In this document: piece after piece, positions 7,019 to 34,995 of the stretch
Layout of the letters: the number at the start of each line of letters is the position of its first letter
How positions within the stretch are numbered: position 1 is the first letter of the stretch
IMG/VR virus record: IMGVR_UViG_3300036939_000059
Coordinates: 2,802-66,801 of that record
Source: a virus
Strand: one strand, 5' to 3'
DNA: 64,000 nt
The notes under the pieces: model-generated
The model's input: only the letters and a program-made list of their open reading frames with translations
Told to the model about the DNA's origin: nothing
Databases searched by the model: none
Translations under genes and position numbers: made by a program

Positions 7019-7321
7019 TCACTCGCCTCCCAACCGTTTCCAATCCTCCAGCGTCAGCCCACCTTGATCCAACAAAGTTTTTAATTGAGCTAGCGTAAGC
7101 TTCACATTGCAACTGCCAAACGCCTCAACTAGCTCGGTAAAGCTGCACTCATAGCCGCGCATCATCGCTTCAACTTCCTCTGCTGAATCGAAACGAGGAA
7201 GCTTAAAACCGCGCTCCCAACTGGAAATCGTCGTAACCGTTCGATTTAAGTCGTCAGCGAGTTTCTTTTGAGTTTTACCGACTCTCTCTCTTAGGGACAC
7301 AACAGTCACTGCGTCTAGCAT
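7019..7321 (-). CDS. XRE-family HTH regulator, paralog 1
   Basis: LRERVGKTQKKLADDLNRTVTTISSWERG. Confidence 0.85.
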   Translation of the reverse strand: MLDAVTVVSLRERVGKTQKKLADDLNRTVTTISSWERGFKLPRFDSAEEVEAMMRGYECSFTELVEAFGSCNVKLTLAQLKTLLDQGGLTLEDWKRLGGE

Positions 7322-25668: not shown

Positions 25669-26463
25669 ATGACAACAAGTAGCAGTCCTAGTAGCAAAAG
25701 CGGTAGCACGAGCGGTAGTACAAGCAGTAGCTCTGGCAATAAAAGTCCCAGTAGTTCCGCCTCCATTGACCCTAACAAGTTGTTCACGGGAGGGACAACT
25801 GAGATTTTTAATTCATTTACTCCTAACAGCACGAGTAATTCCAGCTACTACAATCCCAATAACTCTGGGGCGACGCAATCCGCTACTGCCGACGCGAATA
25901 GTGCCGCCGCACTGTCAGGACAAGACTCACTGGCTTTAGCCAAAGATGCGGCGAGCTACATGACCTCTTTGGGTCAGCAGCAGCAGCAAGCGAAATCCGC
26001 TGCTGAGCAGCAGCTTCAGTCGAGTCAGCAAGCCCTCCAGCAGTCCGCCGCCGCCTCAAGCCAGCAACAACAAGCCTTAAGTGTTGGGTCAAATAAGGGG
26101 TACACCCAATCTCAGGTGTTTGGTCCAACCCCAGCGCCCGCGCCCGCTCCTCCTAATCAGCTCCTTCTAAATAACCAAGCTCAACAAAAAGCTGGGTATG
26201 AGCAAGCGATGCTTGAGCGAAATGCCAATATCGCCATGCAAAACACTGTTCAGCAGAAAGCTCAGGAAGCGGCATTGCAACAATCACTTGCTGCTCAACA
26301 GGGTGCTCAAGCCAAGGAGTTGGCTCAATTGCAAGCTCAATCTGCCGAAGATATTGCGAAAACCAACGCAGCGGCGCAAGTGCAAAGCTCACTGTTTAGC
26401 TCCCTAGGCGGAATGTTTTCAAATATGGGCGGCGGCGGTGCTGGTCGTCATTCTTATTGGTAA
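25669..26463 (+). CDS. Ser/Gln/Ala-rich protein, ejection/DNA-pilot-like
   Basis: Low-complexity coiled coil with Gly-rich C-terminus. Confidence 0.5.
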   Translation: MTTSSSPSSKSGSTSGSTSSSSGNKSPSSSASIDPNKLFTGGTTEIFNSFTPNSTSNSSYYNPNNSGATQSATADANSAAALSGQDSLALAKDAASYMTSLGQQQQQAKSAAEQQLQSSQQALQQSAAASSQQQQALSVGSNKGYTQSQVFGPTPAPAPAPPNQLLLNNQAQQKAGYEQAMLERNANIAMQNTVQQKAQEAALQQSLAAQQGAQAKELAQLQAQSAEDIAKTNAAAQVQSSLFSSLGGMFSNMGGGGAGRHSYW

Positions 26464-26475
26464 GGAAATTAAGTA

Positions 26476-27114
26476 ATGGCTTCATCATCAGGCTACGGGG
26501 TAGCCCCTCAAACCGACGCTCAATTCCAAAAAAACTTAGAAAATGCTGCCAAGACAGGCGATCGCGTAAAAGCGGCTCAAGCCCAAGCGGATAAATCAGG
26601 GATACCGATTTCCTACACCGGTCCTGATGGCAGTTCCGGTATTGTGTACCCATCGGGCTACTTTGGCACCAGCAAGGCGTCTAGTGATGCGTCTGTCGCC
26701 AAGGATTCGAGCGCTAGTAAAACCGATACAGGTACTGGCTCTGCTTTTGGGGTTAACGACTACCTGACGATGGCGGGAGGTGCCCAGGATTTAGCCAAAG
26801 ATATGGCTGAGTTTCAGTTAGGCATCAACGAGAAGCAAAGCGCTCAGGACTACTACTTCCGAGAGAAGGAAGACGTTCGAGAGTTTGGACAGGCGAAGGA
26901 GTTCAAGGGCATTGATTTTACCAATACCCAAGCGCTGCAAGGGCAGCAAATTGCGGGTCAGCAAACGCTCACGGAGACCCAGCAAGCGGCAGAAACTGGG
27001 CGATTGCAAGCTCAACTTAGCAACCAAAAGGAGATGCAGCAAGCAGATTTTACCAACCAAACTCAGCAGCGTGCCCAGTCTGCTGCCTTGGCTCAATTAG
27101 GGTTTAGGCGATAG
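26476..27114 (+). CDS. Gln/Ala-rich protein, ejection/DNA-pilot-like
   Basis: AAGGA RBS; Gln-rich helical C-terminal half. Confidence 0.5.
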   Translation: MASSSGYGVAPQTDAQFQKNLENAAKTGDRVKAAQAQADKSGIPISYTGPDGSSGIVYPSGYFGTSKASSDASVAKDSSASKTDTGTGSAFGVNDYLTMAGGAQDLAKDMAEFQLGINEKQSAQDYYFREKEDVREFGQAKEFKGIDFTNTQALQGQQIAGQQTLTETQQAAETGRLQAQLSNQKEMQQADFTNQTQQRAQSAALAQLGFRR

Positions 27115-27143
27115 GGAAGCTGTCAGCGTTCAGCTATTAGCTA

Positions 27144-27647
27144 TTGGTCAAGAAATTAACCACTAATAAAATAACTATGAATTTTAAAGGATTCGGTAGT
27201 AACGCTAATTTCCCCATCGCCAAAAGCTTCAAAACACTAGCTGGGGAAGAATTGTTCCGACTAGACAATCTTGACAAAGAAGCTGAATTGGAGCGGGAAG
27301 CTAAACGATTATTTAAGATTACTGAAGACCTCCGCGCTGCATTTGACCAAGCTTGTACCTGTTTACAAGCGGCTTTTGTGGACAAGTTTGGTGCGGGTCA
27401 GTTGGCAATGATTAATGATGACTTGCTCCGTCAGCGGAAAGCGTGGATTATTCCAATTGAGGATACTGAGGAGAATATACGCAGGGTCGAAGCCCTCAAA
27501 GAGGAAAGCCAGTTTAAAGCTTACGTTGACTACTATCACCGTGCCTGCCCCTTGTCCCCACATCAAGCGATGGTTGTGCAGTATTTAGAAGATGAGGAAT
27601 TCAAGACCGTGTACCGATTGAGAGAAGACATTCAGCGAGGTCTATGA
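27144..27647 (+). CDS. Hypothetical protein (start may be 27177)
   Basis: 167-aa ORF upstream of the RAMP-like gene. Confidence 0.6.
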   Translation: MVKKLTTNKITMNFKGFGSNANFPIAKSFKTLAGEELFRLDNLDKEAELEREAKRLFKITEDLRAAFDQACTCLQAAFVDKFGAGQLAMINDDLLRQRKAWIIPIEDTEENIRRVEALKEESQFKAYVDYYHRACPLSPHQAMVVQYLEDEEFKTVYRLREDIQRGL

Positions 27648-27697: not shown

Positions 27698-28288
27698 ATG
27701 AGCAAAAAAGCGATCGCACACCTAGCCAGCATTTCGCCCTACTCTCAATCCAAGTTTCACAACACGCCCAAACTTCCAAAAGAATTGCCCGACGACTACG
27801 AAGCTAGAACCTGGGCAGAGCGCATTCATGTTGATTCAGAAGGGCGAACTTATGTCCCGCCGATGGCATTTAAAAACTGCATAGCCGAGATAGCAAAGTT
27901 TTTAGGGGAGCAGGTTCCCGGTCGAGGTAAAGCAACCTGGACAAAACATTTTGAAGCGGGAATTCTGTGTGTCACTCCTGTCTTGCTTCAGTCACCAACA
28001 ACCGGGAACTTTGTTCTTAAAAGTGACTGGGAGGGAGATTGGGGATTTTACCCAGCCGATGGGGTAAGAGGCAGTGGTAAAAGAGTTATGAAATGCTATC
28101 CCGTCATTCCAGCCTGGATAGGAACTTGCGAATTCCTAATCTACGATGACACCATTACCGAATCTGTATTTGCTAAACACTTAGAGCAAGCAGGGCGATT
28201 AATTGGTGTTGGGCGATTCCGTCCCCGTAACAATGGTTATTTTGGTCGATTCAAAGTAGAAGAACTGAGGTGGGAAGATGACATCTAA
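27698..28288 (+). CDS. Stand-alone Cas7/RAMP-like protein (candidate guide-RNA-binding effector)
   Basis: HLASISPY first strand, YVPPMAFKNCI helix, RV..YPVIPAW..EF, and G-rich loop AGRLIGVGRFRPRNNGYFGRFKV. Confidence 0.8.
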   Translation: MSKKAIAHLASISPYSQSKFHNTPKLPKELPDDYEARTWAERIHVDSEGRTYVPPMAFKNCIAEIAKFLGEQVPGRGKATWTKHFEAGILCVTPVLLQSPTTGNFVLKSDWEGDWGFYPADGVRGSGKRVMKCYPVIPAWIGTCEFLIYDDTITESVFAKHLEQAGRLIGVGRFRPRNNGYFGRFKVEELRWEDDI

Positions 28289-28799
28289 TACTCAAGTTTC
28301 AACCGAGCAAGTAGGCAAAAGAAGCCCTGTTACTCAGCAGCTAATCCAGCGGTTGCGAGATTTGTGCGTGGGTGAGTTTATTTCCTATGGGGAGTTGAGT
28401 GCGATCGCTAACTGTGACGTCACGGGTAAGTATCGCCACTACCTCTCAACTGCCGTTAATGCTGTGGAATCAGAATACTCAGTTGTAGTGGTTTGCAAAC
28501 CCAAGGAGGGGTTTGTCAGGCTCAAAAACGAAGAGATTGCCAAACACGCCAACACCCTGCACAGGAAGCGGCTAGCTTCTGATACTCAGCGGTATCGTTC
28601 CAAGGTCGAGTGCATAGACTCCAGTCGTCTGACCCTGACCCAGCGAATTGAGCATGGGTTAGCCTTGGCTCAAATTGGACTGAGGGAGATGGCAACGGAT
28701 AAACCTTTTGAGCAGGAAACCCGCAAGCGCCTTGCTCAGTCTCCTGAAAATCGCTTGAATCTTGATGCTTTGCTGAGTGATATGCGATCGTTCCGGTAG
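28278..28799 (+). CDS. Partner protein of the RAMP-like gene (winged-HTH-like N-terminus)
   Basis: Overlaps the RAMP stop; GEFISYGELSAIANCDV..YLSTAVNAV..VVVCKPKEGFVRL; ends 6 nt before the array. Confidence 0.6.
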   Translation: MTSNTQVSTEQVGKRSPVTQQLIQRLRDLCVGEFISYGELSAIANCDVTGKYRHYLSTAVNAVESEYSVVVVCKPKEGFVRLKNEEIAKHANTLHRKRLASDTQRYRSKVECIDSSRLTLTQRIEHGLALAQIGLREMATDKPFEQETRKRLAQSPENRLNLDALLSDMRSFR

Positions 28800-28805
28800 A
28801 ATGGG

Positions 28806-29241
28806 GTTGCAACACACCACTCCTCACCTCAGCTCGGCTCCTCGCATCACGACACATCTCTCTACAACACAACTCGACTAGCGATCGCTCTTACTTCGGT
28901 AGGGGCGATTTGCTTTAGGATGAAGAGGCGTCGCCTCTTGACTCATTTCTACTCCGCTCGTCTCGACTTGCCGCGACTCTTCGCAACACAACTCATCACA
29001 ACTAGCGATCGCCCTTGCTTCGGTGAGGGCGATTTGCTTTAGGATGGAGAAACACCGCACCTCAACTCGGCTCTATTCAACTCGACTCAGCACGCCACTT
29101 CTCAACACAACGCAACAAGCGGCACAAGGATTAAACCCCCTGCGCCGCCCTTGTATTATGGAGAAGCATCTCAACTCTTTACATCACGTCGCTACCCATC
29201 TCCTCTCAACGCAGCGCATAGCCCCTAGGTACTCTAGGGGC
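28806..29241 (+). ncRNA. Four-unit array of 5-nt-periodic tracts (NN + CDC), each closed by a hairpin; candidate guide RNAs
   Basis: Pentamer tracts 28806-28880, 28930-29004, 29054-29118, 29168-29217; hairpins 28884-28909 and 29008-29033 (cUUCGg loops), about 29119-29148, and 29221-29241. Confidence 0.8.
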
Positions 29242-29271
29242 AAACCTTAGCTCTTAACTATCAAGTTAATT

Positions 29272-32358: not shown

Positions 32359-34995
32359 ATGCGATCGCCCCGTCTCCACCTCGCTCACCGCCACACTGCT
32401 AGAAGTCAAGCCCGTTCCCTGTACGCGCTCTCTCCCACCGAGCAAATCCTTCTTGCTCGAAAAGACTTCAACGCTTTTCGCTGGTATGTCAAAAACCACA
32501 AATCTTACACGCACCACCAAGAGTGGTCGAGGTATCTCAACACCGACCTAAACAGCAGGTGCTTAAACGGTATTGCGGGCGATGACCTACTTATCCTTGC
32601 TCCGCGTGGTTCGTCAAAATCGACATTCTTAATTGAGTGGGTTGCCTACCAAATCGGGCGACACGCTGCGCCAGAGATTCGCCAAGCCCTCAAGGTGCTG
32701 TATGTGAGTTATGAATTGAAGACAGCGCGTCAGAAGTCTCAACAAATTAAGCGCCTGCTAACCTTGCCAGAGTATCGGCGTGTATTCCCGTGGATTCGAC
32801 CGGGAGAAAACTGGGCGAATGAGTTGTGGGAGATTGACTTTGCTCACGCTGGTTTGCCAGGGGCTGATGAACCCTACACTGTGGCAGCGGCGGGATTGAT
32901 TGGGAACGTCACAGGTAAAAGGTGCTTTGTTGGTGATACATTAATAGAGACCGAGATAGGCGCAGTACCCATCTCGGAAATTCAAAAATATATCACTCTC
33001 AGGATTTTAACTTTCAATGAATCAACCCACACCCTCGAATGGGGACGCATCAAGAACGTTGCGTCAAGACCCTCGAATGAACTTGTTGAAATTAGAACAA
33101 GTGGAGGGCGTAGAGTGCGCTGCACTGCCGACCACCCTATCTATACACTGGAACGAGGATACTCAGAGGCCCAGTATTTACTGGCAGGGGATACCCTTGT
33201 CGTCACTACCCAAGGAAAAGAAGAAATACAGAAGCTGCCTTGGATGCAGCAAGGAAATGACCAACACTTCGGCGCATATTTGCCAAGACTGCTATCAGGC
33301 TTCCAGGCAGGTGCGTTTCAGGATTCGCTGCAAGGGCTGTTCGTCGATCTTCCTTCTCAGTCCAAGCGAACTTCAAAAGAAGGTGAGAAGAGGGGGCTTC
33401 GAGTTCTTTTGCAGTCACAAGTGTCATGGAGACACCCGCAAGAAGCCAAAGGATTGCGAGAGCTGTGGAATGAGGCTTTGCTCTACATCCAGGGGAAAAA
33501 GAGGGAGGTTTTGCCCGGACTGCCTACAAAAAGCACGGACAGTGCGCACACTACAACCAGCCAAGTGCTTGAACTGCGATCGCTTGTTTGCCCCGCGAAC
33601 CAGCAAGACTCAGCATTGTTCTCAGGCTTGCGCCAATGCGACGCACTCAAGAAAGATGTCTGGGGAAGGCAACAGCCACTACAAAGATGGACAGAGTTAC
33701 GGCAAGGATTTTCTCGACTTGAGAGCGGCTGCCTTGAGTCGGGATGGCTACCGTTGCACTGCTTGCGGGATTACGGAAATAATCGAACCCAAGGGCAGGT
33801 GGGGCAGGCTATCGAACCTAGTAGTCCATCACTTAAACCACGACCATTGCGACAATCGCCTTCAGAATTTGGCGACTATGTGTCGAGCGTGCCACGTCAT
33901 TCATCACAAAACGAAAAAGACTGGGGATTAGACAGGGTTGTCTCAGTTGTTAAACTTCCTGCCGTGACACAGGAAGTTTACGACATTGAGGTAGAAGGAA
34001 ACCACAACTTTTTCGCCAATCAAATACTATCGCACAATTGCCACATTTCAGTGTATGATGACTTAATTAAATCCCCAGAAGCGATCGCGAACCCCGACAT
34101 CCGTGAGCAGATGGTTTCCAACTATCGCAACATCATCAAGCCGACTCGCTTTGATGGCGCTCGCTCAATCTGTTTGGGGACGAGGATGCGACCGGATGAC
34201 ATTTATTGCACCGAGTTCACGGCAGACAATGACTGGCAAGTTGTTGAGCAATCCGCAATCCTCGACCTTCCCGATGGTGGGGAGTGTAGTTACTGGGAAC
34301 CCGAAGACGATGAATCCCCTGGTCAAACCCTTGCGTTCCTGCAAAGTATTCGGGAAAAAGAACCCGAAACATTCAGCTACCAGTACCAGAACAAAGTTAT
34401 CCGGATTGCTACCCAAGCCATTACTCCTGAACTAATCACTAAAGGTATCATCCCCTCTCAAATGGATTACTTGGCTTTGGGCATAGACCTATCCGCAGGC
34501 GAACGCGAGGTCAACGACTACACCGCTTTTGTCCTAGGGGGTATGGCGCGGGACGAAAAGGGACGCAATCGCTATTTTATTATCGACTGCTGGGAAGATA
34601 GACTGATGGGCAACATGAAGAAGTTAGAGGCGATCGCTGTCCTCTACGACTGTTGGCGACACCTCTGTCCTTACCTTGAATTATTTGTGGAGTCCAACGG
34701 CTACCAGCTTAGTTTTGCGGGAGACTACCAGGACTTTGTTGCCGAGAAGGAATACTACGACTGGCAAGTCACAGCGGTTCACTCTGCCGAGAAAAAACTT
34801 GAGCGACTGCGGGGCGTCACTGGGTTACTGGAGAATAAACTGGTCACCTTTAATCAGTACGGGCGGCTGATGGGGAAACTTACCCTGCAACTGACCAACC
34901 ACGGAAGTACTAGCCATGATGACTTAGCCGACGCTTTTGAGAAATGTTTGAGAGGGTTGAGGGTGCGATCGCCTTTGACCGGGGCTAATTACTAA
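32359..34995 (+). CDS. terL: Terminase large subunit with intein
   Basis: Walker A LAPRGSSKST, Walker B ISVYDDLIK, RSICLGTR, nuclease LGIDLS..DYTA, VESNGYQ, HDDLADA. Confidence 0.93.
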   Translation: MRSPRLHLAHRHTARSQARSLYALSPTEQILLARKDFNAFRWYVKNHKSYTHHQEWSRYLNTDLNSRCLNGIAGDDLLILAPRGSSKSTFLIEWVAYQIGRHAAPEIRQALKVLYVSYELKTARQKSQQIKRLLTLPEYRRVFPWIRPGENWANELWEIDFAHAGLPGADEPYTVAAAGLIGNVTGKRCFVGDTLIETEIGAVPISEIQKYITLRILTFNESTHTLEWGRIKNVASRPSNELVEIRTSGGRRVRCTADHPIYTLERGYSEAQYLLAGDTLVVTTQGKEEIQKLPWMQQGNDQHFGAYLPRLLSGFQAGAFQDSLQGLFVDLPSQSKRTSKEGEKRGLRVLLQSQVSWRHPQEAKGLRELWNEALLYIQGKKREVLPGLPTKSTDSAHTTTSQVLELRSLVCPANQQDSALFSGLRQCDALKKDVWGRQQPLQRWTELRQGFSRLESGCLESGWLPLHCLRDYGNNRTQGQVGQAIEPSSPSLKPRPLRQSPSEFGDYVSSVPRHSSQNEKDWGLDRVVSVVKLPAVTQEVYDIEVEGNHNFFANQILSHNCHISVYDDLIKSPEAIANPDIREQMVSNYRNIIKPTRFDGARSICLGTRMRPDDIYCTEFTADNDWQVVEQSAILDLPDGGECSYWEPEDDESPGQTLAFLQSIREKEPETFSYQYQNKVIRIATQAITPELITKGIIPSQMDYLALGIDLSAGEREVNDYTAFVLGGMARDEKGRNRYFIIDCWEDRLMGNMKKLEAIAVLYDCWRHLCPYLELFVESNGYQLSFAGDYQDFVAEKEYYDWQVTAVHSAEKKLERLRGVTGLLENKLVTFNQYGRLMGKLTLQLTNHGSTSHDDLADAFEKCLRGLRVRSPLTGANY
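32923..34038 (+). mobile_element. Intein (372 aa) in terL just before Walker B
   Basis: Block A CFVGDTLIET, block B CTADHPIY, block F VYDIEVEGNHNFFAN, block G ILSHN/C. Confidence 0.95.
33017..33931 (+). CDS. HNH endonuclease with multiple Zn ribbons, in the +1 frame inside the intein
   Basis: RDGYRCTACG..VHHLNHDHCDNRLQNLATMCRACH; many CxxC pairs; true start uncertain. Confidence 0.85.
   Translation: MNQPTPSNGDASRTLRQDPRMNLLKLEQVEGVECAALPTTLSIHWNEDTQRPSIYWQGIPLSSLPKEKKKYRSCLGCSKEMTNTSAHICQDCYQASRQVRFRIRCKGCSSIFLLSPSELQKKVRRGGFEFFCSHKCHGDTRKKPKDCESCGMRLCSTSRGKRGRFCPDCLQKARTVRTLQPAKCLNCDRLFAPRTSKTQHCSQACANATHSRKMSGEGNSHYKDGQSYGKDFLDLRAAALSRDGYRCTACGITEIIEPKGRWGRLSNLVVHHLNHDHCDNRLQNLATMCRACHVIHHKTKKTGD

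Follow-up and report, generated by a model that had tools for sequence, protein, structure and literature searches.

VIPR systems, a new class of programmable DNA binder, consist of the RAMP protein Vipr, a vap gene and RNAs of ~100 nt termed vrRNAs (bioRxiv 10.64898/2026.04.26.720920). Each vrRNA contains 9-16 YNNGG repeats followed by a 3′ tail; its NN bases recognise double-stranded DNA with one target base skipped per unit, and the system silences competing mobile elements (bioRxiv 10.64898/2026.04.26.720920). The same work names NNNGG, YNNNG and NNNNG as alternative repeats, and type II is exemplified by Escherichia phage SUSP1 and a Pseudomonas fulva prophage (bioRxiv 10.64898/2026.04.26.720920, 10.64898/2026.04.26.720927). 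The rule that the constant triplet reads GGY comes so far from two closely studied systems; in SUSP1, its first two bases, G1 and G2, are held by residues D177, W178 and R138 of Vipr (bioRxiv 10.64898/2026.04.26.720927). Published work also shows that competitors and satellites can hijack Vipr with solo vrRNAs, and REP-directed solo vrRNAs have been documented for phage satellites of E. coli (bioRxiv 10.64898/2026.10.15.759431). A preprint of October 2026, based on a genomic language model survey, describes 21 clusters of VIPR-like arrays with other triplets, among which the part of its text considered here names GAC/NN, CAC/NN, WGT/NN and TGH/NN beside Vipr-like folds (bioRxiv 10.64898/2026.10.21.760802).

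The window analysed here is a stretch of 64,000 nucleotides from IMG/VR virus record IMGVR_UViG_3300036939_000059, which belongs to a temperate cyanophage of ~67 kb from a biocrust (soil-crust) metagenome. Positions 27698-29250 of the window very probably form a complete VIPR locus, composed of vipr, a vap-like winged-helix gene and four vrRNA genes. A previous sequence-only reading of this DNA had described VIPR as a RAMP protein with NN-gapped guides, in agreement with the published description (bioRxiv 10.64898/2026.04.26.720920), and had proposed that the locus is a related system with a different constant triplet and four guides. That proposal is supported by the protein fold, a match to SUSP1 Vipr, a set of 122 compared loci and the contrast in conservation between NN and triplet positions. 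The features of the locus are as follows.

27698-28288, + strand: vipr, a 196-aa single-RRM RAMP protein (Cas7-like) with the G-rich loop GRFRPRNNGYFGRF
28278-28799, + strand: vap-like gene, 173 aa, predicted to have a winged-helix-like domain at the N terminus and helices in the C-terminal half; 11-nt overlap with vipr
28797-28918, + strand: putative vrRNA unit 1, with TAGAAT box (28797-28802), tract of 15 units (28806-28880), hairpin (28880-28914) with UUCG loop, and U-rich run
28916-29042, + strand: putative vrRNA unit 2, with TAGGAT box (28916-28921), tract of 15 units (28930-29004) and hairpin (29004-29038) with UUCG loop
29040-29153, + strand: putative vrRNA unit 3, with TAGGAT box (29040-29045), tract of 13 units (29054-29118) and a different, imperfect hairpin (29119-29148)
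29154-29250, + strand: putative vrRNA unit 4, with TATTAT box (29154-29159), tract of 10 units (29168-29217) and a third type of hairpin (29221-29241)

The overall architecture follows that of the SUSP1 and P. fulva VIPR loci. All are phage-borne minimal loci with a small RAMP gene, an accessory gene of DNA-binding type and, downstream, guide genes of ~100 nt in which 10-15 pentamers (a constant triplet plus NN) precede a structured 3′ end. As in those phages, the contig contains no self-target for its guides, the best score being 20/30 apart from the trivial self-match at a 3-nt skip. Differences concern the constant triplet, which is C-D-C with no conserved G instead of G-G-Y, the -10-like box that each window unit possesses and the 3′ tails: published VIPR arrays have one shared pseudoknotted tail, whereas the window array has three different hairpin tails.

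The region 28806-29217 comprises 53 pentamers in strict register, divided into four tracts of 15, 15, 13 and 10 units; a recount of all units upholds both the positions and the exact 5-nt register reported for them earlier. Over all four tracts, position 1 of the triplet is a C in 48/53 pentamers, as is position 3 (48/53), and the middle base is distributed as T28/A14/G10/C1, so that C-D-C, previously written C[A/T/G]C, is an accurate label. Throughout the 67,357-bp contig, 50-nt windows with at least 8 of 10 NNCNC units are restricted to the array and to its + strand, the − strand having none, and 20 first-order Markov simulations of the contig reached a maximum of 5-6 of 10. Each tract closes with two to three units of the form AA-CAC AA-CNC that are conserved between units as well as between phages and probably form part of a constant 3′ handle. 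The claim that the NN strings vary does not apply to these terminal units. A coding interpretation of the tracts was considered and rejected, since codons cannot follow a 5-nt period and the open reading frames over the array are short and not conserved. Rfam, CRISPR direct repeats included, gave zero matches in the array region, which therefore has no hammerhead-interspersed units.

Each unit looks like a mini-gene of its own, with the sequence layout of a TAnnAT box, a short purine leader, a tract and a hairpin. What had been described as an ‘ATG-G/A-rich leader’ corresponds more closely to a -10-like hexamer (TAGAAT, TAGGAT, TAGGAT and TATTAT in units 1 to 4) followed by a purine-rich stretch ending in C, and the TAGAAT box of unit 1 overlaps the vap stop codon. 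Among the loci of the CTC clade defined below, a TAnnAT box is found at most 24 nt upstream of 21/25 tracts. Since such a box precedes each unit, each may be a separate transcription unit; a scan of the array under strict rules for generic sigma-70 promoters with a required -35 element and for consensus terminators returned nothing. Unit 2 is a 124-nt direct repeat of unit 1 (72% identity).

Every tract is followed by a hairpin, as first noticed from the letters, and three tail types coexist within the one array. The hairpin of units 1 and 2 has 15 pairs (11 contiguous, a bulge and 4 more), a UUCG loop and a U-rich run. The 11-bp stems with G-U pairs and UUCG loops seen before are therefore present, with a bulge and four further pairs added. 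In the four homologous copies of this helix, from the window and its closest relative L036, 59/59 cells are paired (100%). Four of the pairs show one-sided changes accommodated by G-U wobble; two-sided changes are absent. For the tails of units 1 and 2, folding strongly favours the + over the − strand (−19.8 versus −9.7 and −22.2 versus −15.0 kcal/mol), which fixes the RNA strand as +. The tail of unit 3 forms an imperfect hairpin on the + strand and folds better on the − strand in the window, and the orthologous tail in L036 is a perfect hairpin. A scan of IMG/VR and the JGI metagenomes for further copies of the unit 1/2 tail found none.

On the basis of its predicted structure and of profile comparison, the 196-aa protein is a RAMP, as the sequence-only reading had held for the product of 27698-28288, and has a sequence link to Vipr. 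An AF2 model built on 29 homologues has a mean pLDDT of 91.8, and the best 50 Foldseek matches to it are all RAMPs of Cas7/Csm3 type, headed by backbone subunits from type III and type VII CRISPR complexes (best E value 1.3e-7, TM 0.5-0.58). A profile of 29 family members matches PDB entry 36pp_D, ‘SUSP1 Vipr protein’, with an E value of 3.8e-8. The alignment pairs profile positions 97-182 with chain residues 109-190; it is confined to the C-terminal half and includes the G-rich loop, GxGxxRPR..GRF. Because only 82 residues of SUSP1 Vipr align, the window locus probably represents a different VIPR type. The SUSP1 residues D177, W178 and R138 that contact G1 and G2 align with R173, F174 and Y134 of the window protein; as these residues are replaced and the triplet has no conserved G, the SUSP1 recognition chemistry would not be simply transferable. 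In PHROG, vipr matches phrog_4652 (E value 9e-13), a family with no assigned function; Pfam and PADLOC contain zero families matching vipr, the vap-like gene or their neighbours. The protein family is large and well conserved: a word-indexed search retrieved 2038 homologues, and 1052 cluster representatives were obtained at E values of 0.001 or below. In tblastn against GenBank phages, the only match was a weak one in Pseudomonas phage Medea1, and SUSP1 was not reached.

The RRM-thumb-G-loop fold is also that of the Cas7 backbone proteins (Csm3 and Cas7 of types III and VII; Foldseek E value 1e-7), with which Vipr presumably shares polymerization on RNA at a fixed nucleotide step. The step itself differs, Vipr covering 5 nt with three bases sequestered and Cas7 6 nt with one base flipped. 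Class 1 CRISPR-Cas systems differ from the window locus in two further respects. The scanned neighbourhood has no CRISPR array, cas1, cas2, Cas5, Cas6 or large subunit, and the window guides are encoded in the genome rather than acquired. The only repeats at the locus are the pentamer units. Taken with the Rfam result, the neighbourhood scan and the repeat search leave the locus without class 1 CRISPR-Cas hallmarks.

The vap-like gene belongs to a recurrent arrangement: vipr is followed by a gene of 162-173 aa in 12/13 CTC-clade loci examined and in the CGC-type locus L091. Its AF2 model (pLDDT 88.6) gives weak Foldseek matches only, all of them to winged-helix regulators with E values of 0.025 or worse, and the prediction is consistent with the DNA-binding vap genes known from several VIPR types. 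The reading frames of vipr and vap are intact and conserved. A neighbourhood-only scan of six neighbouring proteins assigned none of them to a Pfam, PADLOC or Cas family. Upstream of vipr, three genes (25669-27647; 264, 212 and 167 aa) have no family matches; they are syntenic in L036-L038, and because other genes take their place in L039 they are probably outside the VIPR module.

The C-D-C triplet of the window is neither GGY nor one of the NNNGG, YNNNG and NNNNG variants of the founding paper. A set of 122 loci was compared: the window itself, 35 drawn from species genomes, 80 taken from IMG/VR and a further 6 surrounding the closest homologues. The original proposal had been staked in advance on RAMP homologues having such tracts, and they do: pentamer tracts on the gene strand adjoin the vipr homologue in nearly all of the 122 loci. 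A dominant triplet could be called in 119/122 loci (GGC 57, CGC 21, CTC 16, GAC 14, GTT 5, GTC 3, CAC 2, AGT 1), and position 3 is a pyrimidine in all called loci. In a tree of 96 distinct Vipr proteins, the CTC loci, window included, form one clade (13 rows, SH-aLRT 89); its sister group is a CGC pair (97), and it lies within a larger group of GGC, GAC and CGC members. This nesting places the window in the canonical GGC protein family and makes the triplet evolutionarily labile. The tree requires ~21 triplet changes, 7 of them at position 1; sister proteins that are 70-74% identical use GGC versus CGC, or GAC versus CGC. The middle base is near-pure T in most loci of the CTC clade and a T/A/G mixture in the window, L036 and L039. 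Excluding the locus from VIPR on its triplet is weakened on three counts: proteins of the window's family at 50-60% identity use GGC, CAC/NN and GAC/NN arrays have been published beside Vipr-like folds, and position 3 is still a pyrimidine.

The placement of the triplet also bears on novelty. The reporting of non-GGY triplets, CAC/NN included, in October 2026 (bioRxiv 10.64898/2026.10.21.760802, in the part considered here) makes the claim of a new triplet less novel. Like the window array, the arrays presented in that part of the preprint combine an alternative fixed trinucleotide with a Vipr-like fold, CAC/NN being a C-x-C scaffold, and one degenerate position inside the triplet is described there. 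The part considered here names no CTC or C-D-C triplet and contains no phylogeny of triplet switches, unit anatomy or target for non-GGY arrays. The C-D-C locus is accordingly not a new kind of system; it is a well-documented variant with an informative phylogenetic setting.

Two minor observations concern array size and orientation among these relatives. In L052 (2262-2338) and L020 (2092-2215), both of the CTC clade, vipr has an additional tract on its upstream side; read along the gene strand it consists of GAG-NN, equivalent to CTC on the opposite strand, which suggests a divergently transcribed guide gene. Arrays are far larger in some GGC-type relatives than the four-unit array of the window: in L065:3568-4442 and L084:3094-4448, pentamers follow one another almost without a break over ~900 to 1,350 bp, and a single tract reaches up to 41 units.

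Conservation within the array was assessed against L036, which comes from another metagenome, has a Vipr 88% identical to that of the window and shows the same layout, with a TAGAAT box on the vap stop codon, four units and the same three tail types. Units 2 and 3 were aligned unit by unit. NN bases are identical at 22/56 positions, and at 12/44 (27%, the level of chance) when the three conserved 3′ units are removed. Triplet position 1 is identical in 25/28 units and position 3 in 26/28 (19/22 and 20/22, respectively, on removal of the 3′ units), that is, 86-91% identity at the outer triplet positions; tails are 84-92% identical. At third codon positions the identity is 68% for vipr and 75% for vap, so the hypervariable NN strings change faster than synonymous sites within a scaffold that is retained. 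The expectation that NN would be less conserved than the triplet is thereby confirmed. Guide lengths also differ between the two phages. In guide 4, the seven 3′ units are identical between window positions 29183-29217 and L036:7520-7554, and the 5′ units differ in sequence and number. Part of the same guide 4 string, AT-CAC TA-CCC AT-CTC, recurs inside an L039 guide (around 7270-7300). Related phages therefore have guide segments in common, other units differing.

Taking the published VIPR complexes as a guide, the locus would operate as follows. Each vrRNA gene would be transcribed from the + strand by its own -10-type promoter to yield an RNA of ~95-125 nt in which 10-15 pentamers are framed by a short purine leader and a terminal hairpin. 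Judging from the homologous SUSP1 complex, whose structure is solved, one Vipr protomer would sit on each pentamer of this RNA, holding the constant triplet (C, not-C, C, as compared with G-G-Y) and exposing the two variable bases. The NN string would then pair in a gapped manner with double-stranded DNA, most likely with one target base skipped per unit, and the bound Vipr-vrRNA complex would silence the target. Competing mobile elements or repeated host DNA are the probable targets.

Guide 1 was searched with one skipped base per unit and at most three mismatches against 401 genomes from across the cyanobacterial phylum and a further 81 genomes of the family of G066, a 7.1-Mb cyanobacterial genome. 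Its NN string matches one site in the 482 genomes, G066:C15:138820-138863, at 27/30 with a 1-nt skip; the 81 family genomes added no match, and the reversed-pattern control gave zero. A match of 27/30 is expected by chance with an estimated frequency of ~1e-3, or as much as ~1e-2 once A-rich runs are taken into account. Convergent nadC and peptidase genes flank the site, which is neither in a promoter nor in a mobile element and falls on a palindromic repeat that G066 carries at least 40 times; longer copies of this repeat score 24, 23 and 21 of 30 against guide 1. Comparison of the four guides at skips 0-2 with 724 kb of related loci showed only the guide 1 repeat exceeding unit-shuffled guides. 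As an observation on the genome itself, these short palindromic repeats of G066 are intergenic (L042:1380-1560, which corresponds to G066:C15, and L044-L050); they have the core AGTCCTCT-AAA-AGAGGACT and, in several copies, a longer form of ~45 nt, and are the best match family for guide 1.

These matches raise the possibility that guide 1, at least, aims at a dispersed palindromic repeat of a host chromosome and not at a competing phage, so that part of the array acts on, or is titrated by, host repeats. This would resemble the REP-directed vrRNAs documented for E. coli satellites (bioRxiv 10.64898/2026.10.15.759431), since here too the best natural match is a dispersed palindromic chromosomal repeat, which would be the first candidate target for a non-GGY guide. 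It would differ from them in that guide 1 belongs to the phage's own complete array and that the candidate match comes from one species. The reading has a real yet minority claim. The repeat match is limited to that single species and to two metagenome contigs, found in a scan with the guide 1 core, that both represent the same nadC/peptidase locus; G066 has neither a vipr gene nor DNA similarity to the phage and is at most a putative host; and the A-rich 3′ part of guide 1 raises the odds of a chance match.

The preferred account, in which NN bases read DNA with a 1-nt skip, draws suggestive support from this one guide 1 match. It is improbable that the locus is a working Vipr-RNA system following some other rule, be it another skip, use of the middle base or RNA targets. 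Such a departure could be imagined from the scaffold, which is changed at two of three positions and has a middle base free among T, A and G in the window's subclade, from the replacement of the residues that hold G1 and G2 in SUSP1, and from the absence of a 1-nt-skip target for three of the four guides in the searches made. Guide 2 (1-nt skip, at most three mismatches) gave nothing in 251 genomes of the order to which G066 belongs, guide 3 nothing in five cyanobacterial genomes, and guide 4 two 18/20 matches in G001, approximately the chance level for 20 positions; the exact core patterns of guides 1-4 gave nothing in IMG/VR. For comparison, a 17-unit guide from the related prophage locus L054 gave nothing in 52 genomes of its host's family. 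Against another rule, the sole significant match came with the 1-nt skip, skips 0 and 2 yielded only background for every guide in the contig and the 724 kb of related loci, and a by-hand reading of guide 1 middle bases against the skipped target bases found 4/14 in agreement, the level of chance. Canonical GGC is moreover found among close relatives from the same protein family, so that an altered geometry would not be expected.

It is highly improbable that the tracts give no functional RNA and instead serve at the DNA level, as protein-binding iterons or as signals for recombination or packaging, or represent a remnant in decay: both sequencing runs carrying the window sequence are DNA (biocrust and soil) and the unit 3 hairpin is degraded on the + strand, but against this the tracts accompany the RAMP gene at nearly all compared loci, triplets are maintained while NN outpaces synonymous sites, promoter-like boxes and strand-specific G-U hairpins are conserved, and both protein frames remain open.

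Comparison within the protein family offers a lead on how the triplet is read. The column of window residue Y118, just before the thumb, is V in 56/59 G-first systems and L, M, A, C, Y or T in most C-first systems, a shift that includes several separate sister pairs (CGC versus GGC or GAC, 70-74% identity). At the position of window H21, the aligned residue is H in 32/35 C-first systems and Y in 38/59 G-first systems. A test of residue against triplet by phylogenetically independent pairs contained too few supported pairs for significance. These alignments make Y118 a lead for the residue that may set triplet specificity, and H21/Y21 a weaker second candidate.

We tentatively advance, as a conjecture somewhat less probable than the aiming of guide 1 at a host repeat, that the triplet is a fast-switching ‘system identity’ code rather than a frozen scaffold, with specificity set by few residues. 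If so, switching of the triplet would blind a phage's Vipr to the guides of competitors and satellites, C-D-C with its relaxed middle base would be one outcome of this arms race, and orthogonal VIPR scaffolds could be designed. As judged from sequence comparison, the same Vipr family appears to work with pyrimidine-only scaffolds and to switch scaffold frequently between close relatives, which would supply naturally occurring pairs with which to map the reading of the repeat by Vipr and to construct guide-protein sets that are mutually orthogonal.

The phage context extends the range of VIPR to temperate phages of soil-crust cyanobacteria. Hallmark genes on the contig encode a large terminase, a portal-like protein, a major head protein, a replication initiator and a KilA-N-type regulator. 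The contig ends overlap by 137 bp (G000:C1:1-137 and 67221-67357), and the 67-kb genome was therefore assembled as a circle or with a terminal repeat. The large terminase reading frame (window positions 32359-34995) encodes 878 aa, and it matches PHROG terminases in two separate blocks, residues 32-188 and 567-871, a pattern consistent with an inserted element; in L039, an Intein_splicing domain is annotated within the 881-aa terminase.
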